Assembly: GCA_964291285.2 (NCBI GenBank)
Contig: OZ219788.1
Coordinates: 192,001-256,000 of the forward strand
Source of the DNA: Alphaproteobacteria bacterium
GTDB lineage: Bacteria > Pseudomonadota > Alphaproteobacteria > Bin95
Length of the DNA: 64,000 nt
Reading direction: 5' to 3'
The notes under the pieces: generated by a model
Database searches by the model: none
What the model was told of the DNA's origin: nothing
What the model saw: only the letters and a program-made list of their open reading frames with translations
Shown here: one piece after another, positions 5,347-63,550 of the stretch
How the letters are laid out: each line of letters starts with the position of its first letter
How positions within the stretch are numbered: position 1 is the first letter of the stretch
Translations under genes and position numbers: made by a program

Positions 5347-5351
5347 CCTAA

Positions 5352-43588: not shown

Positions 43589-43961
43589 CGCAAGGGCGGG
43601 CAACGGCGCCTCCCGCTCCGGCGCCGTGCCGGGCCGAAACGACGATGGGGTCCGTGCAGGGCGAGAGAAATACGCCACCCCGCTGTGATCTCCAATCGTG
43701 TCACACGTGCTCGCGACAGCAACCCCTGCGGGGTCCTCCGGTCGCTCCGCTCCCTGCGGCCCGGGCAAGAAGCTCCAAGGGCGGACCGTGAAAGTCGACG
43801 ACCGTGAAGATCGCAGGGCGATCTTCCGCACCATCGCCGACTTTCCGCACCACTCCGCCCCAAGAGCTTCTACGCCCGGGTGCTTCTGCTGCGCGCGCGT
43901 GCCCCGACAGGACATCACAACGGGGATCGGCCCCGAACGTGAAAACCGAAAGGAAAACGAC

Positions 43962-44888
43962 ATGACCTTCCATACCGATACCACCGAAACCGCAGCACAG
44001 TCCGCAACCGCGATCGTCTGCGACAACGCCGTTCTCTTCGGCGCAACCCCCGAGCGCGACGAGTTCGACACCCGGGAGATCTGGGACCAGGACGAGGCCA
44101 TCACCGCCGTCGCCGAAGCCTTCCGCATCCTCAGCCAGGGCGTCGCGCCCGACGGATACCAGATGGCAGACGAACGCGAACACCTCCTCTGGGGCTTCGT
44201 CAACATGCTCCACGCACAGACACAGCGCCTCGACCGCGCCGCCGACAGGCTCACCCCCGAACTCCAGGACCTCCAGCGCACACAGGACGGCTCCGAGATC
44301 AGGTCGCTGGAACTGGAACTCGTGACCGACCGCGCACAGTGCCTCACCGCACGCCGCGACGCCTTCGAGACCCTGCGCAACGAGGCCGCCGAAGCCTACC
44401 GCGCAGACACCGGCGACACTTGGCGGCCCCGGCGCGGCAGCCACGCCAGCCAGACCGGACATCTGACCTCCGCTGCCATCGACGCCCGCGACTTCGTCCG
44501 CGCCCGAAAGGACCGCAAGACACAGGCTCACCTGCCCCAGGGAACCCTCGTCGCCATCGCAGGCGGAAAGGACATCGCAAACCCGGCGGCGGTCATCGAG
44601 CGCCTCGACAAGGTCCGCGCCAGGTATGCCGACCTCGTGCTCGTGCATGGCGGCGGCCCCGGCGTCGAGAAGATCGCCGCAAGCTGGGCAGAGCGCAACG
44701 GCGTCCACCAGGTCGTCTGCAAGCCCGACTGGGACCGCCACGGTCGCGCCGCACCCTTCCGCCGCAACGACGAACTGCTCAACCTCCTGCCCAAGGGCGT
44801 CATCGCCTTCCCCGGCTCCGGCATCACCGAGAACCTCGTCGACAAGGCGAAGCAGCTCGGCATCCCGGTGATGAAGGTAGCAGCCTGA
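43962..44888 (+). CDS. DUF2493 (YspA-like SLOG) domain protein
   Basis: C-terminal AIAGG, LVHGG..G.E.IA..WA, PDW..HG.AAPFRRN, FPG.GI. Confidence 0.85.
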   Translation: MTFHTDTTETAAQSATAIVCDNAVLFGATPERDEFDTREIWDQDEAITAVAEAFRILSQGVAPDGYQMADEREHLLWGFVNMLHAQTQRLDRAADRLTPELQDLQRTQDGSEIRSLELELVTDRAQCLTARRDAFETLRNEAAEAYRADTGDTWRPRRGSHASQTGHLTSAAIDARDFVRARKDRKTQAHLPQGTLVAIAGGKDIANPAAVIERLDKVRARYADLVLVHGGGPGVEKIAASWAERNGVHQVVCKPDWDRHGRAAPFRRNDELLNLLPKGVIAFPGSGITENLVDKAKQLGIPVMKVAA

Positions 44889-45526
44889 CCGCAACGCATC
44901 GCGGGCCGTGTCGTCGCTCCGGCGGCGGCACGGTCCGTTTCCTCTTTCGCACATCGATGACGCGGCAACGCCAACCTCGCGCGCTTCGCGCCGCACTCGT
45001 GCTCCGGCTTCGCCGATCGCGCTTGCGTTCCGCGTCCGCGTCACGCGCCGCTGCACCATGCTTCGCCCGGGTGCATCGCCGTCCGCGCCGATCCCGGCGC
45101 ACCGCCCGCCGCACTTCCGCCAGCGTGACTGTCGACGGCACTGCCGGCGCTGCCGCCCGTCCGCTCGGCACGGTGCTTCGCACCAGTGCCCGCGCTCGCG
45201 CCGGCGAGGCCGTCCGCTCACACGCCGCGGCGGCTCCCCTCCGCCGCTCTCGCCAGCGTCGATTTCCCCATCGTGAATGCTATCCCTTCCGGCTCTGTCT
45301 CGACGGCGGAGCCGCTATTTCGTCACACCCGACGCATCCTTGATGCAGGGAGCGAGGCCCGGCCGGCCTGCATCGGTCGGCAGTTTTCCGTTGCGTGACA
45401 GACGGTTGGGCCTGATCCGCCCTGTGGCCGCGATCCCCCGCGCGGGTCGCGTTGTCCGTTCAGGAGCGCCGTTCCGTTCCCCCGGGACGGACGGCGCCCG
45501 AGGGAACAGACAACGGAGACACGCCC

Positions 45527-46663
45527 ATGCGCATCCATGCCCCCGTCAACGAGCGGACGGTCCGCCGCACCTTCAGGGAGAAGAAACCCGGACGATACGG
45601 CCTGACCGTCATCGACAGGGACCTGCCCGCCTTCGGCTTCACCGTCGCCGGGAACGGAACGAAGACCTTCTTCGTCCGGACCTCACGCCAGTTCGGCGCG
45701 CCCAGGGCGATCCTCGGCACGACCGACGACATGACCGCCGCCGAGGCGAGGGAGAAGGCCATTGCCGCCATCGCCGAAGCCAAAGCCGACCGCGAGACCG
45801 GGCCGCTGTTCGCCGACTTCGCGGCCGACTTCATGCGCCGCCAGGGGCGGCGCTGGAAACCCTCCACGAGGAAGGCCAACGCCCATCTGATCGAGCGCCG
45901 CCTCCTGCCCTTCTTCGGCGCGATGCCCGTCGCGAAGATCGACCGCGCCGATGTGCGGCGCTGGTTCGATTCCCTCAGCGGAACCCCCGGCAGCGCCAAC
46001 CGGACCCTGCCGGTGCTGTCGGTGATGATGCGGCAGGCGGAGCTGTGGGACCTTCGCCCGCAGGGCTCCAACCCCTGCCGCAACATGCGGCGCTACAGGA
46101 CGGCGCCGCGCGAGCGGTTCCTGTCCCTGGACGAGTTGAAGCGCCTCGGCTTCGTCCTCGACCATGCCGAGGACCGGCAGGCCGCCGCCGCCATCCGCCT
46201 GCTGCTGTTCACCGGCGCCCGGTCGTCCGAGATCGCCGGCCTGCAATGGGACTGGATACGGGACACCCGCGCGGTGTTGCCGGACTCCAAGACCGGACCG
46301 AAGGCGCTCCAGCTTCCCCCGCCCGCGCGGGCCGTCCTGAATGGCCTGCCGCGCGAGGGACGCTTCGTCTTCCCGAACGGGAAGGGCGACGGCCCGATGA
46401 CCGACCTCGGCCTGCGCTGGCAGAAGCTGCGCGGTCTCGCCGGGCTGGACGATGTGCGCATCCACGACTGCCGGCATACCTTCGCCTCCCATGCCGTGAT
46501 GAGCGGCCTCGACCTCTACACCGTCGGCCGCCTGCTCGGCCATGCCGATACCGCCTCCACCGAACGCTACGCCCATCTCGCCGACAAGCATGTCCGCGAG
46601 GCGGCCGGGCGCATCTCCGGCATCGTCCACGAGGCCATGACCGGGAAGGAGAGCGGGCGATGA
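45527..46663 (+). CDS. tyrosine recombinase/integrase (first of a tandem pair)
   Basis: TGARSSE, SKTG, HDCRH, LLGH, TERY. Confidence 0.92.
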   Translation: MRIHAPVNERTVRRTFREKKPGRYGLTVIDRDLPAFGFTVAGNGTKTFFVRTSRQFGAPRAILGTTDDMTAAEAREKAIAAIAEAKADRETGPLFADFAADFMRRQGRRWKPSTRKANAHLIERRLLPFFGAMPVAKIDRADVRRWFDSLSGTPGSANRTLPVLSVMMRQAELWDLRPQGSNPCRNMRRYRTAPRERFLSLDELKRLGFVLDHAEDRQAAAAIRLLLFTGARSSEIAGLQWDWIRDTRAVLPDSKTGPKALQLPPPARAVLNGLPREGRFVFPNGKGDGPMTDLGLRWQKLRGLAGLDDVRIHDCRHTFASHAVMSGLDLYTVGRLLGHADTASTERYAHLADKHVREAAGRISGIVHEAMTGKESGR

Positions 46664-48009
46664 GCGGCGGCAGGCATCGTGTCCGGCTCACCGTGAAGGC
46701 CGTCGCCGCCGCCAAGCCGGCGGAACGGGAATACACCCTGTGGGACAATCTGCTGGCGCATTTCGGGGTCAGGGTGCAGCCCTCCGGCGTCCGGTCCTGG
46801 ATCGTCCAGACCCGCGTCCGGGGACGCATGCGCAAGATCACCCTCGGGCGCTTCCCCGAACTGCCTCTCGACGCGGCGCGCCGGGAAGGCGCGGCCGTGC
46901 TCGCCCGCCTGTGGGGCGGCGAGGACGTGACGCCGCCGCGCAAGGAGAAGGCGCCGCTGTTCCGGGACTTCGCCGCCCGTTACCGCTCGCGGCGGAAACA
47001 CCGCTGGAAGCCGTCCTCGCTCAAGACCTTCGATAGCTACATGAAGAACCGCCTGATGCCGCATTTCGGCAGGCTCCGGCTCGACGCCATCGACCATGCC
47101 CGCGTCTCGGCATGGTTCGACGCCGCCAGCGCGGACAGGCCCGGCGCCGCCAACCGCGCCTTCGAGATTCTCCGCGCCATGCTCGGGACGGCCCGGCAGT
47201 GGGGCGACATCGGCGAGCATGTCCCCGACGCCTGCGCCAACATCGTGAAGAACCCCCGCAAGCCTGTCGCGCGCTACCTCAGCCGCGAAGAACTGGAGCG
47301 TCTCGGAGCGGTGCTCGACCGCCACCGGGAGCAGCACCCCTGGCCGGTGGCGGCCATCCGGCTGCTGACCCTGACCGGAGCGCGGCTCTCTGAAGTCATC
47401 AACCTCAGGTGGGACGAGATCGGAGAGCTGGGCGGAGACGGCGCGAGCGCGCGCATCGAAGACTCCAAGACCGGCCCGCGCACCATCTGGCTCGGACCCG
47501 AAGCGGCAAGGCTGGTCGAGGCGCTGCCGCGACCGGATGGCCGGGAGCGGGTGTTCCCCAAGACCCTCACACCGGCAAGGCTCTACACCTTCTGGTGCGG
47601 TATCCGCGACGAGGCGGGGCTTCCGGGCCTTCGCATCCACGACTGCCGCCATACCTGGGCCTCGCAGGGCGTCATGAACGGCGTCGGGCTCACCACCGTC
47701 GGACGGCTGCTCGGTCACCGCAAGCGGGAGACCACCGCGATCTACGCCCATCTCGACGATGGCGCGCTGCGCGACGCCGCCGCCCAGGCCGCGGGCGTCA
47801 TCGCGCGAGCGATGGGGTACAGGGCGGAAGCGCCTCCGCTGCCGGACAAGGCGGAACACGGCGACGTATTGGCCGCAGCGCCCGGGCTCCCGGGTCCCGG
47901 AAAGCCAACCGCGCCAGAGAAGGAGCGGATTCCTCTTCGTGGCAGATCCCGGGATCCGGAGCGATCGGATGCAAGCATCCGCCGAAGACCGCAGGGTATC
48001 GAGATCTGA
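46660..48009 (+). CDS. tyrosine recombinase/integrase (second of a tandem pair)
   Basis: ATGA overlap; WD....FGVRVQPSG, TGARLSE, SKTG, HDCRH, LLGH, TAIY. Confidence 0.92.
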   Translation: MSGGRHRVRLTVKAVAAAKPAEREYTLWDNLLAHFGVRVQPSGVRSWIVQTRVRGRMRKITLGRFPELPLDAARREGAAVLARLWGGEDVTPPRKEKAPLFRDFAARYRSRRKHRWKPSSLKTFDSYMKNRLMPHFGRLRLDAIDHARVSAWFDAASADRPGAANRAFEILRAMLGTARQWGDIGEHVPDACANIVKNPRKPVARYLSREELERLGAVLDRHREQHPWPVAAIRLLTLTGARLSEVINLRWDEIGELGGDGASARIEDSKTGPRTIWLGPEAARLVEALPRPDGRERVFPKTLTPARLYTFWCGIRDEAGLPGLRIHDCRHTWASQGVMNGVGLTTVGRLLGHRKRETTAIYAHLDDGALRDAAAQAAGVIARAMGYRAEAPPLPDKAEHGDVLAAAPGLPGPGKPTAPEKERIPLRGRSRDPERSDASIRRRPQGIEI

Positions 48010-48129
48010 GCTTGTGGCGAGCGTGGAGCCGATCGGGGAGGGTCAGGCAGGGTCTTTGCCATGCGCCCCGATCAGGTTGCCGGTTGTCCCGCCAGTTACA
48101 GGGAAAGGGCCCGTCGAGCCGGCTCTGCG

Positions 48130-48540
48130 GGCTCGTCGTTCATGCCGGCAATGTTCAGGACCGCGACGGAGCCCCGGCCGTGCGGAAATCGATCCGCCAT
48201 GCCTGCCCCCCGCCTTCGCGGGGGCAGGCTCCTGGCTGCGCCATCTGTTCGCCGACGGCGGGTATGCCGGGCCGAAGCTGCGCGGCGCCTCGACAGGATC
48301 GGCAAGTGGACGCTCGAGATCGTCAAGCGGTCGGTCATCGCAAGCGGCTTCGAAAGCCTCTCTGGACGATGGGTCGCCGGACGCACCTTCGCGTGGCTCG
48401 GACGCTGCCGCAGGTTGGCGAAAGACCGGGAGAAATCCATCGCCTCAAGCGAAGCATGGATCGAAATTGCTCACATCAGGCTTACAACACGGCGCCTCGC
48501 AAGGCCCTGTAATCCTTGAAGGAGTTTCAAGTCAGGTTCC
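48130..48540 (+). pseudogene. degenerate IS5-family (IS1031-like) transposase 3' remnant
   Basis: H.GNVQDRDGA, WLRHLFADGGYAG, RWV..RTFAWL.R.RRL.KD spread over three frames. Confidence 0.8.
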
Positions 48541-48635
48541 GAGGCGGACGCGCCTGTCGAATGGCAATCAGCATTCTGTTGGATTTTAGAACATTCTTAT
48601 GCCATATTGTATGCAAATAAGACATGGAGGCTCCA

Positions 48636-48980
48636 ATGGCACCTGTTACGACACTCGAGCCCAAGACCGTACCGGCATTCCCTGCCGGGGAAATCGAGGC
48701 CTGTATCCGCGACGTCCTGGCGGACACAGGCGCGATGCAGGTGGCGCTGCACGGCGGCGCAACACCAGCAGGCGACCCGGGCAGCGCGGTCGGTCCGCAG
48801 CCGGTGATCGATTCGCTGGTCGTTGTGGAAGTGCTGCTTGAAATCGAGCCGAAAGTACCGTTCGCGCTTCCCGACAGTCTGGTACAGGCGGGCGGTTACG
48901 ACAATGTCGATGAGGTCGTGCAGCATCTTGTGCCACAACTGGAGCGGCGGTGGCGCAAGCATCATGAGGAGAAAAATTGA
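48636..48980 (+). CDS. acyl-carrier-protein-like small protein
   Basis: IDSLVVVEVLLEIE matches the ACP helix II DSL motif; GGAGG RBS. Confidence 0.6.
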   Translation: MAPVTTLEPKTVPAFPAGEIEACIRDVLADTGAMQVALHGGATPAGDPGSAVGPQPVIDSLVVVEVLLEIEPKVPFALPDSLVQAGGYDNVDEVVQHLVPQLERRWRKHHEEKN

Positions 48981-49372
48981 TGGCGGACAAAAGTAGGCAA
49001 GGCGAAACCTGGAGGGACGAAACGATTGACCGGCAACAGCTTGGCGCGCGTTTGCGCGAGGCGCGAGAGTACTTGGGCCTATCACAGGATGAAGTAGCAA
49101 AGTACCTCGGGATTCCGCGAACGGCGTTGTCGCATATCGAAAGCGGTCAGCGCCGCCTCGACGCGCTGGAACTGAAAAAGGCTGCGCATCTGTATAAGCG
49201 CCCCATTGCCCATTTCACCGGAGAGGCAGAAGCTGATGCAAGCCTGCCTGACGACATCGCCCATCTGGCGCGTGCCGCTGCCGGCTTTTCGGAAAGGGAT
49301 CGCCAGGAATTGAGCCGGTTTGCCGACTATCTGCGGGCACGCGCGCAAAGCGAGGGGTCCTCGGATGGCTGA
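48980..49372 (+). CDS. XRE/Cro-family HTH regulator
   Basis: LREARE.LGLSQ.EVA..LGI.R.ALS.IESG.R; TGATG coupling. Confidence 0.92.
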   Translation: MADKSRQGETWRDETIDRQQLGARLREAREYLGLSQDEVAKYLGIPRTALSHIESGQRRLDALELKKAAHLYKRPIAHFTGEAEADASLPDDIAHLARAAAGFSERDRQELSRFADYLRARAQSEGSSDG

Positions 49373-50381
49373 CGTCCGCAATGCCATTTTGCGCGGCAAA
49401 CGCGCGGCCGGCCGGTTGCACCGAGCGTTAGGAATGCGGGAGCGTGTCGAAGCGGAAGGCGGCCGGATCGACGTGTTCGACACGATCATTAAATCGGGTG
49501 TGCCGCTTTTGTTTAAGCCGCTAGAAGGATTGCTCGGCGTTTTCATCAATGAGCCGATGCCCGGTGTCATGGTGACGACGAAGCGGGGACTCAGTATTCA
49601 GCGCTTCACCGGCGCTCATGAGCTGGGGCATTGCGTCCTTGATCATCGTCCGAGTCTTGATGATGAGTCGATTTTGCGACGGTCGCCGTTCAATACCACG
49701 CCGGATTACGAGCAGCAAGAACTCGAAGCGGACGCATTCGCCACGGAGTTCATGATGCCGCCTTGGCTGTTCGTGGCGCATTTCCTGCGACACGAGTGGA
49801 CGCCTGCGTTGATGGCGGATCCGCTGATGGTCTATCAACTCTCGCTGCGGATCGGTACGAGCTATGAGGCCACATGCCGGTCATTGATGCGGCCCGGCGT
49901 TGCCGTGATACAGAAGAACACGGTCGATAACCTGCTCCGTGTGCAGCCCAAGGCCATCAAGAAAGCGTTGCTCGGAGACTATGAACCGCCCGACTGGCGG
50001 CGGGATGTCTGGCTGCTGACGAAAAATGACGAAGGTGCCGTCATTGAGGGCAGCCGTTCGGACCTCTTTGTGCTCAAGTTGAAAGAACACAGCGGGTCCG
50101 GCTATGTCTGGACCTTCGACGAACTCAACGAAGCGGGCTTTGCCATTGTCCGCGACGAGCGTGAGGGACCGGACGGCGAAACAATCGGCGGGCACGTGAT
50201 GCGGTCGATTACGGCGCGCTCCGAAGGACCGCAACAGGGACGAATGGCACTTGCAGAGCGGCGCCCATGGCTTGCCGAAGGCGCACCACTGGCCTCATTC
50301 TGCGTCCACTATGACCTGAGCGGGCCGCAAGATGAAGGGATGTCGCAAGCCGAGCGGCGGCGTCTGCTGGGGGCCGCCTGA
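49365..50381 (+). CDS. ImmA/IrrE family metallopeptidase with C-terminal chagasin/I42-like domain
   Basis: RFT.AHELGH and E.EAD.FA...LMP-like motifs; C-terminal L.EHSGSGY.W ... IGG ... RRPW. Confidence 0.85.
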   Translation: MADVRNAILRGKRAAGRLHRALGMRERVEAEGGRIDVFDTIIKSGVPLLFKPLEGLLGVFINEPMPGVMVTTKRGLSIQRFTGAHELGHCVLDHRPSLDDESILRRSPFNTTPDYEQQELEADAFATEFMMPPWLFVAHFLRHEWTPALMADPLMVYQLSLRIGTSYEATCRSLMRPGVAVIQKNTVDNLLRVQPKAIKKALLGDYEPPDWRRDVWLLTKNDEGAVIEGSRSDLFVLKLKEHSGSGYVWTFDELNEAGFAIVRDEREGPDGETIGGHVMRSITARSEGPQQGRMALAERRPWLAEGAPLASFCVHYDLSGPQDEGMSQAERRRLLGAA

Positions 50382-51082
50382 TGGAGGTTACGGTCGAGTG
50401 TGACCTGCGTCATTTGTTCGGCCCGGCGCGCGATCAAGGTATGCGGCCAACCTGCATGGCCTTCGCGGCAAGCGACGCCCACGCGGCAGCCCGGCCGGGT
50501 TGGGTTCCACTGTCGTGCGAATACGCCTATTTCCATGCACTGAAACGGGACGGGGGCATCCCAGATGACGGGACAACGCCCGATGCTATGCTGACGGCGA
50601 TCAAAGAGGACGGGCAGCCACCAGAGACGGCTTGGGCGTACCTGCCGCGCATGCCAGCCGACTTTACGCTATGGAAGCCGCCCGAAAGCGTCAGCCCTAT
50701 CTACCGGCGTGCCAACGCCTATGACCGCGCATCACTCGCGGCAATCCGCACAGGGCTAGATGCCGGAGTACCGATGATCACAACGATGTGTCTGTCCGAT
50801 GCATTCTTCCAGCCCGACCCGGACGGCATTATCGACGCATGCGAGCCACCCGACCCGCAGCGGCGGCACGCGATTATCGCGGTCGGCTATGGCACTCGGA
50901 GTGGCAACCGACTGATCCTTGTACGGAATAGCTGGGGCACGGACTGGGGCGCCGATGGTTATGCGTGGGTAAGCGAAAGCTATCTTGTACCCCGTTTGTA
51001 CGATTTTGCAGAAATGAAAGAGGATCTGACGAGTGTACCTGCCGATCCCAACGCAGCCAACGTGCGCAACAGCGTGGCTTGA
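50381..51082 (+). CDS. papain-like C1 family cysteine peptidase
   Basis: DQG.RPTC.AFA (oxyanion Q, catalytic C), HAIIAVGYG (H), RNSWG..WG..GY (N); no signal peptide. Confidence 0.92.
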   Translation: MEVTVECDLRHLFGPARDQGMRPTCMAFAASDAHAAARPGWVPLSCEYAYFHALKRDGGIPDDGTTPDAMLTAIKEDGQPPETAWAYLPRMPADFTLWKPPESVSPIYRRANAYDRASLAAIRTGLDAGVPMITTMCLSDAFFQPDPDGIIDACEPPDPQRRHAIIAVGYGTRSGNRLILVRNSWGTDWGADGYAWVSESYLVPRLYDFAEMKEDLTSVPADPNAANVRNSVA

Positions 51083-51842
51083 GGCCTTGGTGGCTGTCGA
51101 CAAGGTGCCCGGCCACGAAGCGCACAATGTGATTATCGACGTGGCCGAGCCGCTGGCGCAGACCGCTGCCGACGCGCGCATGATAAAGGTCGCCGACGAT
51201 TTCTTACGTGGCCGTGGCGCAATGCCCCTGCAATCCGTGGCGAATACGATCTTCCCGGAGGGTCTATACCGGCGGCACGGCGCGCCTGCTCTCTATCACG
51301 TGTATGGACAGGTTTACCAGCAGGTAAAGAAGAAGCAAGGCGATTGGGGCCGGTATTTTGAACGGATGATTCGCCGCCCGACTACAAACGGCAAGAACAT
51401 CAATCCTCTCGCCGACATGATTGCGAAAATGACGCAGCATGTTCACGGTGGCGGCAAAACGTTCCGCAACATATACGAGTTGACCGTTTCCGATCCAGCT
51501 CTCGATGTGCCCATCTATGATCCCGAACGTGATGCCGGGCCGGTGATGAACCGACAGTGCATGAGCTTCCTGAGCTTCAAGCTTGATCATGAAAACCGCA
51601 TGATGCTGACCGCCTTGTACCGGAACCACTATTACATCGAACGGCTGTTCGGCAATCTGATTGGCCTCGCTCGGCTGATGGCTTTCGTTGGGCGCGAGGC
51701 CAATGTGCCGGTTGGTCCGCTGACCGTCATCTCCACCCACGCCGAAATCGACACGCGGCGCGGCTGGAAACGCCACGATATCAAAGAGCTAATCGCTGCG
51801 TGTCGGGAAGCCACAGCTCAAAAGGTGAGCGTCGTCGCGTAG
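51033..51842 (+). CDS. divergent thymidylate synthase-like protein
   Basis: QCMSFLSF...L.ALYRNH...LFGN..GL..L...G.L..ISTHA parallels the TS PC/YQRS/PFN/H motifs. Confidence 0.65.
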   Translation: MYLPIPTQPTCATAWLEALVAVDKVPGHEAHNVIIDVAEPLAQTAADARMIKVADDFLRGRGAMPLQSVANTIFPEGLYRRHGAPALYHVYGQVYQQVKKKQGDWGRYFERMIRRPTTNGKNINPLADMIAKMTQHVHGGGKTFRNIYELTVSDPALDVPIYDPERDAGPVMNRQCMSFLSFKLDHENRMMLTALYRNHYYIERLFGNLIGLARLMAFVGREANVPVGPLTVISTHAEIDTRRGWKRHDIKELIAACREATAQKVSVVA

Positions 51843-52497: not shown

Positions 52498-53729
52498 GCG
52501 GGCAACCTCTCAAAGGTTATGGTTCGTTCATTCAGATCGGCGATAACACTACCGCGTCTGTGCTCGCGTAGCGCACGAAACACTTCATAGCCGCTCAGGA
52601 TTGCCTCTTCCCATAGCCAGAGCGGGCAGCGCTCCGGTTCATATCCGGTGACGAGCGCCCGCGCATTTTTGAGAAGGCCGTAATCGACACCGCTTAAATT
52701 CTCGAAAAAATTCACCTGCGTAGCGTGATTGAATATCCAGGTCGCAACACCTTCCTCAATCAGTATGGCGCGAGCTCCGTCCTCGGCCTCATCGATCTCG
52801 GGACGGCTTTTGCGCTTGACCCGAAAGAGCGCCCGCATGACCGGGGACCACCCCAGTTTGGCCGCGTAAGCAAGATGGAAAACATCATGGAAGCAATAAT
52901 CGTCTTTTTCCAGCTTGTTGTCGGTAAGCCGGTCACCGACATTGATGCCATTGCAGCGCAGAAAAACATACATCTTTTTTTTCACCGTCTTCTCGAAAAT
53001 CTGCATCTCGATACGCCGCGGAATCTGCTCCCCGGAATCGTATTCGTCGTCGAAGAGCGGCGGATAGATGCACTTCAGTGGCCAGCGGTCGTAAATCTTG
53101 GAGAGATTGCGATGCGCGGCTTCGCCCAAGCTGACGCCGACGTTGTTAGCAGCTTTTATAATAGTACGGAATACAGCTTCCATGTGGTCCGAAAGGCCAC
53201 CGGACCCGTCCGCGATTTGACTTGCCGAAAAATCGGCGATCAGTTTGCCAACCTCGCCGGCCAAACGTATGAGCGTTGTCTCGAACACGGCTTCGGCGTC
53301 CGGTCCTGAGACCGACAACGTTGGCTGAAGCATTGAAAAGGTGATGTCTGGCACGCTATCGTTGGAACCGCCGTCACTGATGCGGCTGGCGAGCACTGGA
53401 AGCGTGATCTGTGCCCGGCTGGCCAAGCGGGAGAAATACCAAAGGACGTCCCCCAACTCTTCGATGACTGACTGCTGGTAACCGAAATAAGAATCGGAAT
53501 CGCGCTGCTTCTTCTTAAGTTCAGACAGCAGGCTTCCTGCCTCGCCAAACAGACCTAGCAGAGGGAAAGAAATTCCCTCGGGCATCCGGTCTGTACCGCA
53601 GGACAGGGTTTGATATTGCGCGAGAGTGAGTTCGCAATAGGGAGCTCTCAGAACTGCCTCAAGCGCACCTGACATTTTGTCGCGGTGCTCCGCAGAGTTC
53701 TTGCTCTCGCCGAAACGGAGGTTCGCCAT
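52494..53729 (-). CDS. MazG-like nucleoside triphosphate pyrophosphohydrolase with MazG-C-type C-terminal domain
   Basis: LGLFGEAG...ELKK, EELGDVLWY; second degenerate MazG repeat; C-terminal D.Y.FHD.FHLA...LGWSPV.R....KRKS....DE.EDGARA; GAGG RBS at MANL start. Confidence 0.85.
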   Translation of the reverse strand: MANLRFGESKNSAEHRDKMSGALEAVLRAPYCELTLAQYQTLSCGTDRMPEGISFPLLGLFGEAGSLLSELKKKQRDSDSYFGYQQSVIEELGDVLWYFSRLASRAQITLPVLASRISDGGSNDSVPDITFSMLQPTLSVSGPDAEAVFETTLIRLAGEVGKLIADFSASQIADGSGGLSDHMEAVFRTIIKAANNVGVSLGEAAHRNLSKIYDRWPLKCIYPPLFDDEYDSGEQIPRRIEMQIFEKTVKKKMYVFLRCNGINVGDRLTDNKLEKDDYCFHDVFHLAYAAKLGWSPVMRALFRVKRKSRPEIDEAEDGARAILIEEGVATWIFNHATQVNFFENLSGVDYGLLKNARALVTGYEPERCPLWLWEEAILSGYEVFRALREHRRGSVIADLNERTITFERLPA

Positions 53730-54723: not shown

Positions 54724-55873
54724 GCTGTGGCTCCTCCCTGTCCGTATCACGGAAGCAGCGCGTTGTGGGCAAATGCCCGATGTGCCGGGATAGCGCCGAC
54801 CCACCTCGCGATCCGCCTGGCGGTCACGGTCGCTCTCCGACCGACTGTTCCCGCAGTTCCGCAAACGGACAGGGAAGGCCCGCAATGATGGCAACGGTCT
54901 CCACGCTGACCTGCACGATGCGGCACAACGCCGGGATGAGGTCACGCGGGTCGTCGAACCAGCCGTTGGGGTCATTGACGATGCCGCTCTGCCGGTCGCG
55001 GACGATACGGTAACGGTCGATCAGCCATTCGAGCGGGGTGCGCCCGTTTACCCGATACTCGTGTGCTTGCGGGGGGATGCCCGACAGGCGGACCAGGTCG
55101 TTGACGATGAGAACGGTCCGGTCCGCGTCGGCAAAGCGCATGGCGCGCTGGCCGAGCCGGAATTGCGTCGGCGCAGGCTCGCCTTTCCCGGCATAGTCGA
55201 GCCGCAGCGGATATTCCTCGCAGGTCTCGTAGCCGAGATGCAGCGCCGCGAGGCGGCGGCCGGCCTCGGCGAAGGCATGGAAATCGCCGGCGAGCGGAAT
55301 GCGCGGCAACTCCTTCGTCAGGTCGTTGGCGAAACGCTCCCGGTATGAGGGCGCATGCAGGACGCCATAGACATAGTCGAAGATCGCGTCCTTCGTTATC
55401 GTGCTGTCGCCGTAGCGCACCCGGAAGGCGCGCAACGCGGTGTCGGCAATGTTGTCGATGCACGTCGGCGGCGGTCCCATGCCGGGCAGGCTCTGCTGGT
55501 CGTCGTGGCGCTCATAGCGGTATCGCGGGAAGCACTGGCCGAAAGCGACCAGATGGAGGTCCGGCATCGTATCGACGACCAGTGCGGAGAACGGCTTGGT
55601 CGAGCCGACCCCCGGGACGCAGATCGCGCGGTTCCCGGTCTCGGCGGTGGGGAAGATGCTGTCCTGCTGGTACTTGTTGTTGACCAGGACATAATCGACA
55701 TAACAGTGCTGCTTGATGAATGGTCGGTATTGCGTCTCCCAGACATTACCTTGCGAATAAGCGACCTCCTTACGTCGCCGGAGGTTGTTTTTGAGTTCCC
55801 GATCCCATCGAACACCTGCCGAATGGCGATTCGCGATCTGCTCCACGGTTTTATCGGGATCGTCGTTTTTCTT

Positions 55874-57812
55874 GAGGCGTGTGCGCTGTTTGGAAGTGCT
55901 TTCTGAGCAAGGCATTGCGGAGGGTCTGGATTTTTCTTACCCCGTCAGGATGGCTGATTTCCGGGGTTTTTGCGGTTTGAAGGGAAAGGTTTTGTGGATT
56001 TCCACCCCATGGCCGTGCGCGGGCTGGTTTTCGGGCGCGTCGCGTTGAGGCGCGGGACTGAGTAGAAGGTGTCGCCATCGGGCCTGCGGCCCTTGTTCCA
56101 TCCACCGGCGCTGGTTGGGAGAACGTGATGGCGACAGCGGAGAAGTTAGCCTTTTCGTGGTGGTCTGTGGAGGGCCTTGCGGACCTTGAGCGTCTGCGTG
56201 TGGTGCTCGACACGCTTCCCGACGAGAAGGTTGTGGCTGCGCTTGAGGCGGGTCGAGGCCGGGGTCGCAACGACTACCCGGTGCGGGCGATGTGGCGGGC
56301 TCTGATCGCGGGGATCGTGTTCCAGCATGCCTCGATGCAGTCGCTGCTGCGTGAGCTGGGCCGCAACCCGGCATTGCTTGAGATTTGCGGGTTCGAGGCG
56401 CTGCCCTTGCAGGGTGCGCCGGTGGTGGCGCTTTGCGCAGGGCGCGCGGTGAGGCGTCCGGCGCCGTTGCGCTCGACGGTGCCGGGCGCCTGGAACTTCT
56501 CGCGGTTCCTGGGGCGCGTGGTGCGCCTTGAGGACGAGCGCGGCCTTGTGTCGGGGATGATCGGGCGTCTGCGCGCCTCGCTGTTCGAGGAGTTGCCGGA
56601 CTTCGGTCGCCATCTCGGCTACGACGGCAAGGCGGTGGCGAGCCACTCGACGGGCCGGGTTGCCGGGGCCAGGGGGCAGACCTCGGACCCCGATGCGGAC
56701 TGGGGCAGGCACGAGACGGGCGGGGTGAACGCGAAGACCGGCGCGGTGTGGAAGAAGGTGAAGTCGTGGTTCGGCTACGGGCTGCACCTGATCGCCGACA
56801 CGGACCACGAGGTTCCTGTGGCCTTCGAGGTGACGCGGGCGTCGGCATCGGAACCCGGGGTGCTGTCCGGGATGCTGGAGGAGTTGTTCGCCGAGGCGCC
56901 GGAGATGGCCGGGCGCTGCGCCGATTTCAGCGCCGACCGCGGTCTCGACAACGCCCGCCTGAAGGCGCGGTTGTGGGACAGGTGGCATATCCGCCCGCTG
57001 ATCGACACGCGCCTGATGTGGCGGGTCGAGAAGAAGGAGCCGGGCCATGACCCGGCCCGGCCGATCACGCGACCGCTGTTCCCCGGGCGCGCCGACGTCA
57101 TCGTTCATGACGAACGCGGCCGGGTGTCCTGCGTGTGCCCGCAGACCGGCGAGGTCCGCGCCATGGCCTTCCAGGGGTTCGAGGTCGGGCGCGGCGTCTG
57201 CGGCACGCTCAAATACCGCTGCCCCGCAGCCGCCTTCGGCTTCGAGTGCAAGGGACGCCGGGCCTGCCATCGGGCGGGTGGGGTGAAGTCCGGCGAATAC
57301 GGCCGCATCCTGCGCGTCGACCTCGACAGCCATGACCGGCGTATCTTCACGCCCACGCCCTGGGGCAGCCCGTCATGGCGGCGCGGATACAACCGGCGCA
57401 CCGCCATGGAGCGGATCAACGCCCGCCTCGACCGCAGCTTCAACTTCGAGACCCATTACATCCGCGGACGCGCGAAGATGAAGACCCGCATCGGGCTGGC
57501 CCTGGCGGTCATGATGGCCATGGCGCTTGCACAGGCCCGCGCCGGACGCGTCGCACGCATGCGCTCCCTGGTCGGCCCGGCGCCATACCTCGATACCGGC
57601 TGACCCCTCAGCCGACTGCCGACAACGCTGACCCAACCCGCCGGACCCCGGCATACGGACAAACGCGACCGAAGGCCGGCGATGCTGCCGGGCTGGGCCG
57701 CTCAAGTTCGAAAAGCAACCGCGGCGACCGCCTCGAACGCCGGAACAAACAACATCAACACCCGGACCCAACGTCCCATCCGACCGGAAAAACCCCACAG
57801 CGCAAATTTCTC
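55874..57812 (+). mobile_element. IS1182-like DDE insertion sequence, copy 1 (1939 bp)
   Basis: Ends GAGGCGTGTGCGCTGT / ACAGCGCAAATTTCTC; 5-bp TSD TTCTT. Confidence 0.88.
56125..57603 (+). CDS. transposase (DUF772-type N-terminus, DDE)
   Basis: GR.DYP..AM, DGK, DPDADWG, FGY.LH, ADRG.D, Y.RR...ER.N. Confidence 0.88.
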   Translation: MMATAEKLAFSWWSVEGLADLERLRVVLDTLPDEKVVAALEAGRGRGRNDYPVRAMWRALIAGIVFQHASMQSLLRELGRNPALLEICGFEALPLQGAPVVALCAGRAVRRPAPLRSTVPGAWNFSRFLGRVVRLEDERGLVSGMIGRLRASLFEELPDFGRHLGYDGKAVASHSTGRVAGARGQTSDPDADWGRHETGGVNAKTGAVWKKVKSWFGYGLHLIADTDHEVPVAFEVTRASASEPGVLSGMLEELFAEAPEMAGRCADFSADRGLDNARLKARLWDRWHIRPLIDTRLMWRVEKKEPGHDPARPITRPLFPGRADVIVHDERGRVSCVCPQTGEVRAMAFQGFEVGRGVCGTLKYRCPAAAFGFECKGRRACHRAGGVKSGEYGRILRVDLDSHDRRIFTPTPWGSPSWRRGYNRRTAMERINARLDRSFNFETHYIRGRAKMKTRIGLALAVMMAMALAQARAGRVARMRSLVGPAPYLDTG

Positions 57813-60800
57813 TTCTTGAAATCGCGCAGCGCCGCCTGATAGTCTTCCACCATCCGCCGCGCGTTCTCCGCACAAGCGTCGCGGGAGAAACTGTAAATGT
57901 AGGCGTCCCGGCTGGTCGCCAACCCCCTCGAATACAGCCGGAACACCGCCTCGTCCGTTCTGCCCGCCTTCGCCGTCTTCGATCCCAGGGGATAGAGCGC
58001 CCGGAACGCCTCGTTACGCTGGCCGATCCAGTCGTGGTGCCGGTCGGGGGCGGTCTCCTCCCAGTCCGTGACGCCGGCGATCGACCCCCACTCGCGCAAC
58101 AGCCCCAACTTGTCCTCGCGGGAGAGATAATCGCCGATGTCGCGGTAGAGGATGCGGCAGCCGTCATGCTGCGCGTCCGGATTCTTCGCGAGGACGGCGA
58201 TCGCGACCGGCGCCCGGGACCCTTGGCCGAAGGCGTTATCGCCTTCCGAGCGGCGGCGTTCCCCCGATGTCCGGGCATTACCCCGCAGGTTCACCACATG
58301 GATCGACGAGAACTCCTCCGCCAGGCAGGCGCGGACGCCGGAGTCGACATTGCCGTCGATCCAGGAACCGTTGGTCACGAAGGCCACGACGCCCCGGTCG
58401 CCGATGCGGTCCGAGGCCCAGCGGATTGCCATCTTGTATGTATCGTAGAGACTGTTCTTCAGCGTTGCCGTGGAGCGGGCGGCATAGGTCTCGGCGACGC
58501 GCTGCTCGATTTCCGGATAGCTCACATTCGGGTTGTCATCGGCCGAACTCCGCTGTCCCGCGGACCAGGGCGGGTTGCCGACGATGACCTGGATGGGCAG
58601 TTGCTGCTGGCGTTCGGCGCGTTCGCTGTTGCCGGGCAGCCAGTCCTTCGGGAAGCCCGAGCGCCCGGTATGCAGGTTGAAGGTGTCGGTGAGCACGATG
58701 CCGCCGAAGGGTTCATACTCTTCATTGTCGCCGACCCGGCCGTGGAACGCCTCCTCGATATGGATGGCGGCGATGTAGTAGGCGAGCAGGACAAGCTCGT
58801 TGGCGTGCAACTCCTCCCGGTACTTGCGCCCGAGGTCGGCATCGCGAAGCAGCGCCGACTGCAACAGCCGGACCAGGAAGATGCCCGTCCCGGTAAAGGG
58901 GTCGAGGATGTGGACACCCTTGTCGCTCAGGCCCCGGCCGAACTCCTCGCGCGCCACATGGTCGGCGCTTGCGAGGATGAAGTCCACGATCTCGACCGGC
59001 GTGTAGACGATGCCAAGCCGGTCCGCTTCCTTCTTCATCGCCGTCGCGAAGAACTTCTCGTAGAGTTCCATCAGCACGCGCTGGCGGGCTTCCGGGTTGT
59101 CGAGCCCGCGCGCCCGCAGCCTTACGCTTTCGTAGAAGCGGTCCAGGTCACGGGTTTCGTTTTCCAGCCCGAATTCGCCGAAGTCGCGCCGCAGCGCATC
59201 CAGCGCCCGGGCGACCGGGTTGCCGCCAGCGAAGTCGTAACCCTCGAACAGCGCCTCGAACACCGGACGAGTCAGGATGTGCTGCGCCATCATGTCGATG
59301 GCGCTCTCGGTCGTGATCGATTCGTTGATAGAGACCTTCAACTCTTCGTGGAACGCCTCGAACCACTCGCTCAGGGTCTCGTTGCCGGGGTCGGCAAGCA
59401 GGCCGCCGATGCGCGTCACGAGGCGTGAGAAGATATCCGCGACATCCTTGGCCCAGCTTTCCCAGTATCTGCGGTCGCCGCATTTCTCGACGATCTTCGC
59501 GTAGATTGCGCCGGGTGGCAGATCGAGAGGGGGGAACGCAAGCTCGGGCGAGTCGGGGATGACCTCCCCGTTGACGCCATCCCGGCTGAAGATGATCCGA
59601 TCCGTCGGCCGGTCGTTCAGATCGATCTGGTTAATCTCGGCGTCGAAACGGTCGTCGTGCGAGCGCAGGGCGCGCAGGACGCTCCAGACGACATCGAACT
59701 CCTTGCCGCTGTCGAGCACCAGGACCGGATCGCGCCCCTCCGGCACCGCGATCGGGAGCACGATATAGCCGTAGGTCTTGCCTTCGGCCTTGCGCATGGC
59801 GCGGCCCACGGCCTGGACAATGTCGACAGTGCTCCGGCGCTCGGTCATGAAGATCACCGCGTCGAGCGCCGGCACGTCGATCCCTTCCGACAGGCACCGG
59901 GCGTTCGAGAGGATGCGGCAGCCGCCCTCTGTCGTCCCTTTCAGCCATTCGAGACACGCCTTGCGTTCAAGGGCGTGATGCTGTCCGTCCACATGCCGCG
60001 TCTCGCACCGGAGCGCCGCGCGCCGTTCAGCTTCCGGCAATAGTGCGGCGGCCTGCTCGACGAGACCGCTCCAGTGCTGAGCCAGAAGTTGCGACGACCT
60101 GATCCGGTCGGTAAACGCGATCGCGCGGCGAAGCGGCCGGCCGGGACCGTCTTCCGGCCGCCGGTTTTCCGGATCCTGCAGGACCCGCCAGCAGCCGACG
60201 ATCCGGGCGACGTCGCTCAGGTTGACCGCGCCGTCCGACGAGGCGAGGTGGGCCTGCAACGCCCTGTCCACATGGCTCTCCGACAGGGCGAAAATGGCGA
60301 CCCTGTAGTCCGACAGCAGACCCTGCTCGATGGCCCGGGAGAACGGGAGGCGGTGGAACTCCGGCCCGTAGGTCGCCTCGTCGTCCATCGAGAAGACGTC
60401 GACGCCATGGCTTGCGGCTTTCGTCTTCGCCCCTTCGGTATAGAGCCTCGGCGTTGCCGTCATGTAGAGGCGCCGCGCGGCCCGGATACGACCGGCGTCG
60501 TGCACGAGGACGAAGGGCGAGGTCTTGTCGCCGGGGCGCTCGATCCCCGTCGTCCGGTGCGCCTCGTCGCAGAGGACCAGATCGAACGGCGGAGCACCTT
60601 CGTCCTGCGCCTGCGCGACGAGGCCGATCGAATGGTAGGTGCAGAACACCGCGGTCATCGCATCCGGCGACGCAAGTTGCAATGCCTGGCCGATGGCGCC
60701 CGGATCGGTGGTCACGGGGATTTCCAGCTCCAGGAACGAGGCGTCCTCGTCGGCGCGCCCCGCGCGGGTATCCGAGCAGATGCCGACATAGCGGTGCGCC

Positions 60801-61611
60801 AGTTCGCGCTGCTCCGCCCATTCGCGCATCGACTGCTGGAACAGGGAGATCGAGGGAACGAGATAGAGCACCCGGCCACCCTCGCCAACGATCGCTTCGG
60901 CGATGCGCAGCGCCGCGAAGGTCTTGCCGGTGCCGCATGCCATGACCAGCTTGCCGCGCTCGCCGTCCGCGAATCCCTCCAGCACGTCGTCCAATGCACG
61001 CTTCTGGTGCGGCCGCAGGCTGAACGGCGCGTGGCGGAAGGACAGGTCTTCGGGCGTCCCGCGAACCAGGTCCGGCCAGTCGAAGGGGCGGCTTGCAAGG
61101 TCGCCGAACCGGAGGACCTGACAGGCCGGCTTCAGCCCGACGACCCTCTTGACCGCGTTTGTACCCCATTTGTCTCCGGTGTCCACGAAGATTCGCGCCG
61201 TGAACGGTTCGCGCGCAGACGCGGCGATGAAGGAGTCGAGTGCGGCGTTCGAAATCCTCGTTCCTGGTGCGTAACACTTGCACTGGATGGCGCAAAAGCC
61301 GCCGTCCCGCTCCTCGGCGACCAGGTCGATGCCGGTGTCGGCACCGTCGAAACCATGCCGCGAGGCGGCCCAGTCGGACCACAGCCGCACCTGCCCGAAC
61401 CGGTCCCGGTAGAGCGGATCCTGCGCGAAATACGCCTTCATCAGCCGCTCGAACAAGCGGCCCTTTTCTGCCTCCGTTCCCGCAACCGACCGGATGTGGT
61501 CAAGTGCCCGCTGGAAACCGTCGTTCATGTTCGCAGCGTCCCTCGACTGTTACAACCGCGGATGATCTTCGTGCAGCCCGTCACCGGATTCCACGTTGTG
61601 TCGATCCACTC

Positions 61612-63550
61612 GAGGCGTGTGCGCTGTTTGGAAGTGCTTTCTGAGCAAGGCATTGCGGAGGGTCTGGATTTTTCTTACCCCGTCAGGATGGCTGATTTCC
61701 GGGGTTTTTGCGGTTTGAAGGGAAAGGTTTTGTGGATTTCCACCCCATGGCCGTGCGCGGGCTGGTTTTCGGGCGCGTCGCGTTGAGGCGCGGGACTGAG
61801 TAGAAGGTGTCGCCATCGGGCCTGCGGCCCTTGTTCCATCCACCGGCGCTGGTTGGGAGAACATGATGGCGACAGCGGAGAAGTTAGCCTTTTCGTGGTG
61901 GTCTGTGGAGGGCCTTGCGGACCTTGAGCGTCTGCGTGTGGTGCTCGACACGCTTCCCGACGAGAAGGTTGTGGCTGCGCTTGAGGCGGGTCGAGGCCGG
62001 GGTCGCAACGACTACCCGGTGCGGGCGATGTGGCGTGCGTTGATCGCGGGGATCGTGTTCCAGCATGCCTCGATGCAGTCGCTGCTGCGTGAGCTGGGCC
62101 GCAACCCGGCATTGCTTGAGATTTGCGGGTTCGAGGCGCTGCCCTTGCAGGGTGCGCCGGTGGTGGCGCTTTGCGCGGGGCGGGTGGTGAGGTATCCGGC
62201 GCCGTTGCGCTCGACGGTGCCGGGCGCCTGGAACTTCTCGCGGTTCCTGGGGCGCGTGGTGCGCCTTGAGGACGAGCGCGGCCTTGTGTCGGGGATGATC
62301 GGGCGTCTGCGCGCCTCGCTGTTCGAGGAGTTGCCGGACTTCGGTCGCCATCTCGGGTATGACGGCAAGGCGGTGGCGAGCCACTCGACGGGCCGGGTTG
62401 CCGGGGCCAGGGGGCAGACCTCGGACCCCGATGCGGACTGGGGCAGGCACGAGACGGGCGGGGTGAACGCGAAGACCGGCGCGGTGTGGAAGAAGGTGAA
62501 GTCGTGGTTCGGCTACGGGCTGCACCTGATCGCCGACACGGACCACGAGGTTCCTGTGGCCTTCGAGGTGACGCGGGCGTCGGCATCGGAACCCGGGGTG
62601 CTGTCCGGGATGCTGGAGGAGTTGTTCGCCGAGGCGCCGGAGATGGCCGGGCGCTGCGCCGATTTCAGCGCCGACCGCGGTCTCGACAACGCCCGCCTGA
62701 AGGCGCGGTTGTGGGACAGGTGGCATATCCGCCCGCTGATCGACACGCGCCTGATGTGGCGGGCGGAGAAGAAGGAGCCGGGCCATGACCCGGCCCGGCC
62801 GATCACGCGACCGCTGTTCCCCGGGCGCGCCGACGTCATCGTTCATGACGAACGCGGCCGGGTGTCCTGCGTGTGCCCGCAGACCGGCGAGGTCCGCGCC
62901 ATGGCCTTCCAGGGGTTCGAGGTCGGGCGCGGCGTCTGCGGCACGCTCAAATACCGCTGCCCCGCAGCCGCCTTCGGCTTCGAGTGCAAGGGACGCCGGG
63001 CCTGCCATCGGGCGGGTGGGGTGAAGTCCGGCGAATACGGCCGCATCCTGCGCGTCGACCTCGACAGCCATGACCGGCGTATCTTCACGCCCACGCCCTG
63101 GGGCAGCCCGTCATGGCGGCGCGGATACAACCGGCGCACCGCCATGGAGCGGATCAACGCCCGCCTCGACCGCAGCTTCAACTTCGAGACCCATTACATC
63201 CGCGGACGCGCGAAGATGAAGACCCGCATCGGGCTGGCCCTGGCGGTCATGATGGCCATGGCGCTTGCACAGGCCCGCGCCGGACGCGTCGCACGCATGC
63301 GCTCCCTGGTCGGCCCGGCGCCATACCTCGATACCGGCTGACCCCTCAGCCGACTGCCGACAACGCTGACCCAACCCGCCGGACCCCGGCATACGGACAA
63401 ACGCGACCGAAGGCCGGCGATGCTGCCGGGCTGGGCCGCTCAAGTTCGAAAAGCAACCGCGGCGACCGCCTCGAACGCCGGAACAAACAACATCAACACC
63501 CGGACCCAACGTCCCATCCGACCGGAAAAACCCCACAGCGCAAATTTCTC
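61612..63550 (+). mobile_element. IS1182-like DDE insertion sequence, copy 2 (1939 bp)
   Basis: Near-identical to copy 1; flanked by the 19-bp direct repeat ACGTTGTGTCGATCCACTC. Confidence 0.88.
61863..63341 (+). CDS. transposase (DUF772-type N-terminus, DDE)
   Basis: 492 aa, differs from copy 1 at only a few residues. Confidence 0.88.
   Translation: MMATAEKLAFSWWSVEGLADLERLRVVLDTLPDEKVVAALEAGRGRGRNDYPVRAMWRALIAGIVFQHASMQSLLRELGRNPALLEICGFEALPLQGAPVVALCAGRVVRYPAPLRSTVPGAWNFSRFLGRVVRLEDERGLVSGMIGRLRASLFEELPDFGRHLGYDGKAVASHSTGRVAGARGQTSDPDADWGRHETGGVNAKTGAVWKKVKSWFGYGLHLIADTDHEVPVAFEVTRASASEPGVLSGMLEELFAEAPEMAGRCADFSADRGLDNARLKARLWDRWHIRPLIDTRLMWRAEKKEPGHDPARPITRPLFPGRADVIVHDERGRVSCVCPQTGEVRAMAFQGFEVGRGVCGTLKYRCPAAAFGFECKGRRACHRAGGVKSGEYGRILRVDLDSHDRRIFTPTPWGSPSWRRGYNRRTAMERINARLDRSFNFETHYIRGRAKMKTRIGLALAVMMAMALAQARAGRVARMRSLVGPAPYLDTG

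Follow-up and report, generated by a model that had tools for sequence, protein, structure and literature searches.

Three consecutive genes at positions 48977-51082 of the DNA analysed here (contig OZ219788.1, positions 192,001 to 256,000, of the alphaproteobacterial assembly GCA_964291285.2; this whole stretch of 64,000 nucleotides is called the window) encode an XRE-family helix-turn-helix (HTH) protein, an ImmA/IrrE-type (M78) zinc peptidase with a C-terminal chagasin-family (I42) domain, termed the fusion below, and a papain-family (C1) cysteine protease. With a probability of roughly 0.6, we interpret them as a three-part proteolytic switch in which the I42 domain inhibits the co-translated C1 protease and the CapH/CapP-like half de-represses the operon, within a cassette that is probably conflict-related. 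The genes probably form such a protease-inhibitor switch inside a widespread mobile cassette, whose gene order is carrier-like protein, XRE, ImmA-I42, C1, thymidylate-synthase-like (TS-like) protein, UDG-like protein and MazG-MazG_C.

The chagasin-family domain of the fusion

The Pfam model Inhibitor_I42 matched residues 233-314 of the fusion (E 4.7e-7; 30.4 bits; cut-off 27.2), and the same domain scored 33.6 bits in a genome-wide profile search. An AlphaFold2 model of the fusion based on 18 sequences (pLDDT 82.5; pTM 0.84) comprised the peptidase domain, a helical middle part extending to about residue 203 and a beta-rich domain formed by residues 215-317. When the model was compared with the Protein Data Bank (PDB) by Foldseek, ranks 1-11 were all occupied by chagasin/ICP structures (E 3.8e-7 to 1.1e-4; TM-score on the target 0.60-0.81). 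The best of the chagasin-type matches to this predicted fold was EhICP2 (3m86; E 3.8e-7); the others were 3m88, chagasin (2nnr, 2h7w), Pseudomonas aeruginosa ICP (2wgn), amebosin (6cjz) and the chagasin complexes 2nqd (bound to cathepsin L) and 2oul. CapP (7t5t; E 5.4e-4) and IrrE (3dti) followed at ranks 12 and 13, and PprI (8sln) was also matched. A PDB search with the sequence of the fusion alone was weak, giving CapP at E 0.036 and amoebiasin-2 at E 0.048 below a spurious PPR match. Profile and predicted fold thus support a chagasin-family domain at the C-terminus, as had been proposed in a preliminary description of this DNA made from its letters; the strings quoted there, FVLKLKEHSGSGYVW, ETIGG and LAERRPW, are all present in the translation of the fusion.

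Chagasins bind their targets with three loops whose canonical motifs are NPTTGYxW, GxGG and RPW. In 19 aligned sequences of 50-87% identity, the residues G246, Y247 and W249 (loop L2), G275 (L4) and R300-P301-W302 (L6) were invariant, and G276 in L4 was nearly so.

A profile of the I42 domain alone returned 1180 cluster representatives at E<=0.001, and most of the best 150 were about 330-345 residues long with the domain at about 203-336. About ten representatives among these 150 belonged to a second class of 453-485 residues, the HTH-M78-I42 triple fusions; all three domains were present in P0126 and P0182 (also P0213 and P0194). A metagenome scan with the triple fusion P0126 gave five short loci only. 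Locus L083 is no triple fusion itself, since its XRE and fusion matches lie in different frames. A further protein of 458 residues returned by the I42 domain search (P0233) carries four tandem I42 domains (Pfam; 349.9 bits in four stretches) together with a weak falstatin (I71) match and is unrelated to the cassette.

Linkage of the inhibitor domain and the protease

Relatives of the fusion numbered 1438 in the protein database at E<=0.001. All of the 120 best contain PF06114, and 108 of them PF06114 together with PF09394; in alignment A1, the loop residues are nonetheless visible in two (P0045, P0120) of the 12 relatives that have no precomputed I42 label. A scan of a collection in which each species is represented by a single genome found 445 stretches that encode a relative of the fusion, and from these 80 loci were kept for counting linkage by local tblastn. 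The loci span Alpha-, Beta- and Gammaproteobacteria, Acidobacteriota and Nitrospirota; they are not independent, as many from Sphingomonadaceae are near-identical and the set holds 53 distinct C1 sequences.

An XRE gene lies directly upstream of the fusion in 80/80 loci, and the order XRE-fusion-C1 on one strand is likewise found in all 80, the C1 gene starting -1 to +23 nt from the end of the fusion match. This arrangement persists at identities to the window as low as 49% (fusion) and 39% (C1). The small first gene and the TS-like gene were each found in 79 of the loci, MazG in 73 and UDG in 64 (on the opposite strand in 63 of these), and several of the missing genes are accounted for by contig ends. 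The same seven-gene order also occurs on two plasmids, one from Burkholderia (33% identity) and one, conjugative, from Sphingobium. The conservation of the fusion is far beyond chance.

Eleven loci (L015, L018-L022, L025, L026, L030, L038, L076) had no UDG-like gene detectable with this query; in these, MazG follows directly after the TS-like gene on the opposite strand, and four of them are titled Bradyrhizobium and one Mesorhizobium.

The C1 protease

The 233-residue product of the third gene matched Peptidase_C1 (Pfam; E 5.1e-13; 50 bits; cut-off 20.7). A profile of 19 protease homologues matched 158 C1A chains of the PDB at E<=0.001, with Blo t 1 as the best (5.9e-19); mite allergens, cathepsins K, L, V and H and plant relatives of papain are included among them. 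Catalytic residues are conserved throughout the 53 distinct homologues from the 80 loci: His163, Asn183 and Trp185 are present in all, Gln19 and Cys25 in 52/53 each, and the single misses of the latter two are a gap column.

Papain-family enzymes are typically, though not obligatorily, secreted or lysosomal zymogens with a signal peptide and an inhibitory propeptide. Here the N-terminus lies 18 residues ahead of Gln19, and the profile aligns to the mature chains of cathepsins K and L from about residue 12-14, and to proenzymes only past the propeptide. Because the alignment starts at this point of the mature enzyme, there is no room for either a signal peptide or a propeptide. The complete homologues are all 214-235 residues long. 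Judged from its sequence, the gene product is an intact papain-family enzyme, cytoplasmic and without signal peptide or propeptide, so that the signal-less protease with an intact Q/C/H/N set noted in the preliminary description is borne out. Apparent fusions of C1 with the TS-like protein, or of ImmA, I42 and C1 (open reading frames of 366-562 residues), were discarded as artefacts of extending reading frames through in-frame stops, the complete C1 genes being of the length given above. In the 6.1-Mb genome there is exactly one match to PF00112 and one to PF09394, both within the cassette.

Predicted complex of the inhibitor domain with the protease

A complex was predicted from the protease and residues 205-338 of the fusion, each with a 19-row alignment. 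All three runs gave an ipSAE of 0.92, against 0.00 for the best of three controls, a pass that denotes likeness to solved complexes and gives no measure of affinity. The runs shared at least 97% of their contacts, and the pLDDT of the partners was 79-81. In calibration, the mark used was reached by 58 of 80 solved complexes and by 2 of 110 mismatched pairs, rates that are only a rough guide here, where our own alignments were used.

According to this model, the inhibitor would contact the protease through residues 242-248 (L2), 266-278 (L4) and 300-303 (L6), and the opposing surface (19-26, 62-68, 160-164, W185, 188-190) is the active-site cleft. The loops are predicted to contact C25, H163 and W185, with I274 adjoining both C25 and H163. 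The insertion of the loops into the cleft that the preliminary description had anticipated was thus reproduced by the prediction.

The same data bear on whether the I42 domain is a decoy aimed at cysteine proteases of a phage or competitor instead of the neighbouring enzyme. Bacterial chagasin-like proteins that have been characterised do act in this way: in the passages available of the respective reports, Pseudomonas syringae Cip1 (PMC5014320) and Pseudomonas Cpi1 (bioRxiv 10.64898/2026.06.02.729523) inhibit proteases of another organism, the plant. The same passages describe Cip1 as secreted and Cpi1 as membrane-anchored, whereas the fusion lacks a signal peptide and is joined to a cytoplasmic regulator; moreover, the C1 gene follows in 80/80 loci and is the sole C1 match in the genome, and docking with this neighbour was predicted with high confidence. 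We consider a decoy very improbable.

The CapP-like peptidase and its repressor partner

Peptidase_M78 matched residues 79-174 of the fusion (Pfam; E 1.5e-8; 34.9 bits; cut-off 22) and HTH_3 the XRE protein (Pfam; E 1.3e-13). In PADLOC, the capP model matched fusion residues 33-172 (54.3 bits) and the capH model residues 21-120 of the XRE protein (41.6 bits). Alignments A1 and A2 show no variation at H85, E86, H89 or E119, which line up with the CapP motif. No GAF domain was matched by Pfam in the fusion, and residues 215-317 are predicted to adopt the chagasin fold instead. In sequence and model, the genes therefore resemble a CapP-like XRE/peptidase pair in which I42 takes the position of the GAF sensor. 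As the order in CapP is peptidase, HTH, GAF, the chagasin domain occupies the sensor position. The parts available of a study of CapP (bioRxiv 10.64898/2026.05.16.725639) give this domain order, place the single-stranded DNA (ssDNA) activator between the peptidase and the GAF domain, and describe docking of the CapH HTH onto the GAF domain. With the groove lacking its GAF half here, the trigger cannot be taken to be ssDNA.

This position raises the alternative that the I42 domain is no longer mainly an inhibitor and serves as the regulatory module of the ImmA peptidase, acting as an adaptor or sensor: occupancy by C1 would signal cleavage of the XRE protein, or the I42 domain would recruit C1 to process the repressor or the fusion itself. 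The domain stands exactly where the CapP GAF domain contributes half of the ssDNA groove and the dock of the CapH HTH, the pTM of 0.84 suggests a fixed arrangement of the domains, HTH-M78-I42 triple fusions exist, and loop L2 has diverged from the canonical motif. On the other hand, it is the invariant loops that are predicted to reach C25 and H163, as an inhibitor needs, and a cytoplasmic papain-like enzyme without a propeptide needs some restraint. As the principal role of the domain we regard this as unlikely, and it could be true together with simple inhibition.

Organisation of the cassette

The coordinates of all features are compiled in Table 1. Five co-directional genes with overlapping starts and stops extend from 48624 to 51842, and two genes on the opposite strand converge on them. 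The open reading frames of the fusion and of C1 are those given in the preliminary description, including their coupling by TGATG: at 50379-50383, read directly, the fusion TGA (50379-50381) overlaps the C1 ATG (50381-50383). Likewise, the XRE stop overlaps the fusion start by 8 nt. For the XRE gene itself, the ATG at 48980, which overlaps the upstream TGA, is the likelier start compared with 48977. Scans for promoters, terminators and inverted repeats around the operon gave nothing above the shuffled background.

Table 1. Features of the cassette and of its surroundings in the window
Feature	Position	Strand	Remarks
Small protein, 118 aa	48624-48980	+	First cassette gene; possibly carrier-protein-like
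XRE-family HTH repressor, CapH-like, 131 aa	48977-49372	+	Pfam HTH_3; PADLOC capH
ImmA/IrrE (M78) zinc peptidase with helical middle part and C-terminal chagasin (I42) domain, 338 aa from ATG	49365-50381	+	
HELGH zinc-binding/catalytic motif, residues 85-89	49617-49631	+	
Glu119 codon	49719-49721	+	Downstream of HELGH
Chagasin-fold domain, residues 215-317 (predicted)	50007-50315	+	Beta strands of the model 215-317; Pfam I42 233-314
Chagasin loop L2, residues 241-249	50085-50111	+	
Chagasin loop L4, residues 273-276	50181-50192	+	
Chagasin loop L6 (RPW), residues 300-302	50262-50270	+	
C1A papain-family cysteine protease, cytoplasmic, 233 aa	50381-51082	+	Without signal peptide or propeptide
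TS-like protein, 269 aa	51033-51842	+	Shares 50 nt with the end of the C1 gene
UDG-superfamily protein, 216 aa	51847-52497	-	Converges on the five-gene operon
MazG-like NTP pyrophosphohydrolase fused to MazG_C, open reading frame of 509 aa	52494-54023	-	
YAcAr/SLOG-family protein	43698-44885		This and the next three directly upstream of the cassette
Tyrosine integrase	45452-46660		Tandem with the next
Tyrosine integrase	46705-48006		
DDE transposase fragment	48061-48516		
Type ISP restriction-modification enzyme, split	54827-55915, 57758-61528	-	Insertion sequence between the parts
DDE transposase, 492 aa	56125-57600	+	In the insertion sequence between the Type ISP parts
Second copy of the same length	61863-63338	+	

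The remaining cassette genes are assigned with varying certainty. For the 118-residue product of the first gene, no match was found in Pfam, NCBIfam, PADLOC or PHROG. It contains an invariant S64 in a D-S-L motif and invariant G90, G91 and Y92 (alignment A5), and its AlphaFold2 model (pLDDT 74) consists of three helices. No Foldseek match of this model was better than E 0.97; many of the weak ones are acyl or D-alanyl carrier proteins, and the protein may be carrier-protein-like. The TS-like protein matched the archaeal-type thymidylate synthase model TIGR03283 (NCBIfam) at E 1.4e-9, well below the cut-off, and 'Thymidylate synthase family protein' (score 0.97) is among the closest clusters in the protein atlas. 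Its segment NRQCMSFLSF is one that we take, by eye, to resemble the catalytic Cys region of ThyA. An assignment as aGPT-Pplase was dismissed, as no such Pfam match appeared at E<=0.1. UDG was matched by the 216-residue protein at E 7.7e-7 (Pfam). The last gene matched MazG_C (E 1.3e-80) and, weakly, MazG (E 2.1e-4; both Pfam) as well as PHROG 229; since homologues align only from about residue 91-170 of the 509-residue reading frame, its true start is probably the internal ATG near 53729 (MANLRF...).

Mobility of the cassette

The cassette stretch has a GC content of 57-61%, compared with 65-74% elsewhere in the window, and is preceded by the two integrases and the transposase fragment. At E<=1e-20 the fusion was not found in 16/16 genomes of the same genus and 8/8 other genomes of the same family, and it was found in 1/16 of the same class. 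It is present on 25 plasmid records, 15 of them typed as conjugative; on pTA15-1 the cassette lies between the relaxase and type IV secretion system (T4SS) genes. Its order is shared by a MOBP/MPF_T plasmid, a MOBH plasmid and chromosomal islands, each with different neighbours. Because of the low GC, the integrases, the absence from same-genus genomes and the plasmid records, the cassette is accessory and mobile. Among phage records no real relative of the fusion was found, the one weak match covering the peptidase part only, and no tRNA gene was found between 38000 and 64000.

On the other side of the cassette in the window lies the split Type ISP restriction-modification enzyme. Its N-terminal part (1257 aa) carries Mrr_cat_2, ResIII, a coupler and N6_Mtase, and the C-terminal specificity domain is a separate open reading frame of 363 aa.

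The mobile setting also permits the explanation that the genes serve to maintain the element, the XRE/ImmA pair being an ImmR/ImmA-type switch of an integrative and conjugative element (ICE) and I42-C1 an addiction module acting by post-segregational killing, with no link to phage defence or nucleotide enzymes. The 15 conjugative records out of 25, the place of the cassette on pTA15-1 and the two adjoining integrases are consistent with this, as is the control of ICE excision by ImmR/ImmA pairs, known from the portions of the literature available. The regulators, however, travel with the seven-gene cassette and not with any one backbone, the neighbours differing by carrier, and the TS-like gene overlaps C1 and is kept in 79/80 loci, which implies that nucleotide enzymes share the operon. 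Element maintenance of this kind seems to us distinctly unlikely.

A model of the proposed switch and its weak points

We rank the readings in the order of an inhibition switch, an adaptor or sensor, element maintenance and a decoy. In the inhibition switch, an XRE repressor of the CapH/DdrO/ImmR type would be paired with an ImmA/IrrE-type zinc peptidase and, by analogy with the CapH/CapP, the DdrO/IrrE and the ImmR/ImmA pairs, a stress signal would cause the peptidase to cut the repressor and so de-repress the operon. The I42 domain would occupy, via its three loops, the active-site cleft of the pro-less protease encoded next and keep it inactive at roughly 1:1 stoichiometry, substituting for both the absent propeptide and an antitoxin. 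When the fusion is lost, cleaved or re-arranged, C1 would be freed and would then cut cellular, phage or cassette proteins. The role of the cassette would probably be defence against phages or mobile elements. Inhibition, repressor cleavage, the trigger, the C1 substrates and the defence role are those elements of the model that we infer.

Several observations weigh against this model. Of the three-loop motif claimed in the preliminary description, RPW, G-G and G-Y-x-W are kept, but L2 reads HSGSGYVW, its N-P-T-T part being replaced by H-S-G-S, and G246-Y247-x-W249 alone is retained there. The complex score may stem from solved chagasin-protease complexes that the predictor had learned, and the docking covers the isolated domain alone, with any steric effect of the peptidase half outside it. 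Co-translation at 1:1 means that induction alone would not free C1, and an extra release step beyond transcription is therefore needed. CapH/CapP pairs, in the accounts available, are normally divergent from the operon they regulate; the pair here runs in the same direction as its operon and is coupled to it translationally. As PADLOC offers no models that cover C1 or the TS-like, UDG-like and MazG genes, the defence role is judged from context only. Finally, in locus L008 (93% identity) an insertion of about 2.7 kb (4667-7359) with a 492-aa open reading frame splits the fusion gene at residues 218-222, the exact border between the peptidase/helical part and I42. After the insertion come the segment encoding I42 and a C1 gene that is intact; strong toxicity would be disfavoured if this C1 gene were still expressed.

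A more far-reaching version is a two-protease relay, in which the chagasin domain at the sensor position would couple the two proteases mechanically: the state of the zinc peptidase, in docking and cleaving the repressor, and the release of C1 would control each other and arm a new and widespread anti-phage or anti-plasmid system based on proteolysis together with pyrimidine-nucleotide or DNA-base chemistry. We put this forward tentatively, as possible if somewhat doubtful; were it true, TS-like, UDG-like and MazG-kinase-like enzymes and a carrier-like protein would be joined to proteolysis.

Repressor-peptidase pairs of the ImmA/IrrE/CapP kind are a main route from stress to gene expression in bacteria, phages and mobile elements, and here the sensor is swapped for a protease inhibitor. 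Inhibitors of the chagasin type are known from parasites, where they are free proteins, and from bacteria, where they are secreted or membrane-bound and directed at proteases of other organisms. If the inhibition switch is correct, a regulator-fused cytoplasmic chagasin that acts on a papain-like enzyme of the same cell, one lacking a propeptide, would put the family to a new use, and effectors in a conflict system would be controlled in a new manner, with a papain-family enzyme held by an inhibitor replacing a nuclease or pore former. Members are numerous, with 445 species genomes of the collection scanned, several phyla and conjugative plasmids, and the family is apparently unstudied; two or three cloned genes would suffice to test the central claim.

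Comparison with known systems

What the preliminary description had observed is confirmed, and its interpretation is partly supported, in the fold and the predicted docking; it was incomplete in having missed the overlap with the XRE gene, the CapH/CapP-like nature of the pair and the seven-gene mobile cassette with its nucleotide-modifying enzymes, at whose centre the two genes lie.

Among the matches listed, no paper joining chagasin or I42 with ImmA, IrrE, M78 or phage defence was retrieved by a literature search, outside of which lay the figures and supplements of PMC13092281 and Burroughs et al. 2015, which may depict the gene set; a search on MazG, papain-like, ImmA and UDG together yielded nothing related. 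In the passages available of the DefensePredictor study (PMC13092281), systems that are predicted but unvalidated include the domains MazG, MazG-C ('a predicted nucleotide kinase'), UDG and HTH, and validated ones include a domain of thymidylate synthase. With these nucleotide-centred predicted defence systems the cassette shares its MazG-MazG_C, UDG-like, TS-like and HTH genes. Neither 'ImmA' nor 'papain' occurs in the main text of that study, and chagasin is unmentioned in the passages available.

Each half of the fusion belongs to a known kind, the one to CapP-like regulators and the other to chagasin inhibitors, and it is their combination that is apparently unstudied. CapH/CapP, DdrO/IrrE(PprI) and ImmR/ImmA share with the present genes the immediate succession of an XRE gene and the gene of an M78 peptidase, which carries HExxH and, downstream of it, a Glu, as well as a helical middle domain. 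CapP and IrrE differ in possessing a GAF domain, with its ssDNA groove and repressor dock, where a chagasin domain is found here, and in our own reading of the alignment the cysteine-switch Cys of Thauera CapP corresponds to Ile103; the gene orientation discussed above, in which the pair is translationally coupled with downstream genes, is a further difference from CapH/CapP. The domain shares with Trypanosoma cruzi chagasin, EhICP2 and P. aeruginosa ICP the predicted Ig-like beta-sandwich, the G-Y-x-W, G-G and R-P-W loop residues and the predicted wedging into the cleft. Chagasin and the ICPs, however, are free proteins of about 110 aa, whereas here the domain belongs to a 338-aa cytoplasmic regulator, and its putative target is a bacterial cytoplasmic enzyme encoded next door.

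The analogy with type II toxin-antitoxin pairs, already drawn in the preliminary description, is one that we infer. With these, and with Isp1/IPI of Bacillus subtilis as described in the part available of PMC3901451, the genes have in common a putatively protective partner upstream of a potentially harmful enzyme, the overlap of stop and start, an HTH protein in the operon and a mobile locus. In contrast to type II systems, the putative 'toxin' would be a papain-family protease and the putative 'antitoxin' an inhibitor domain fused to a signal-transducing peptidase.

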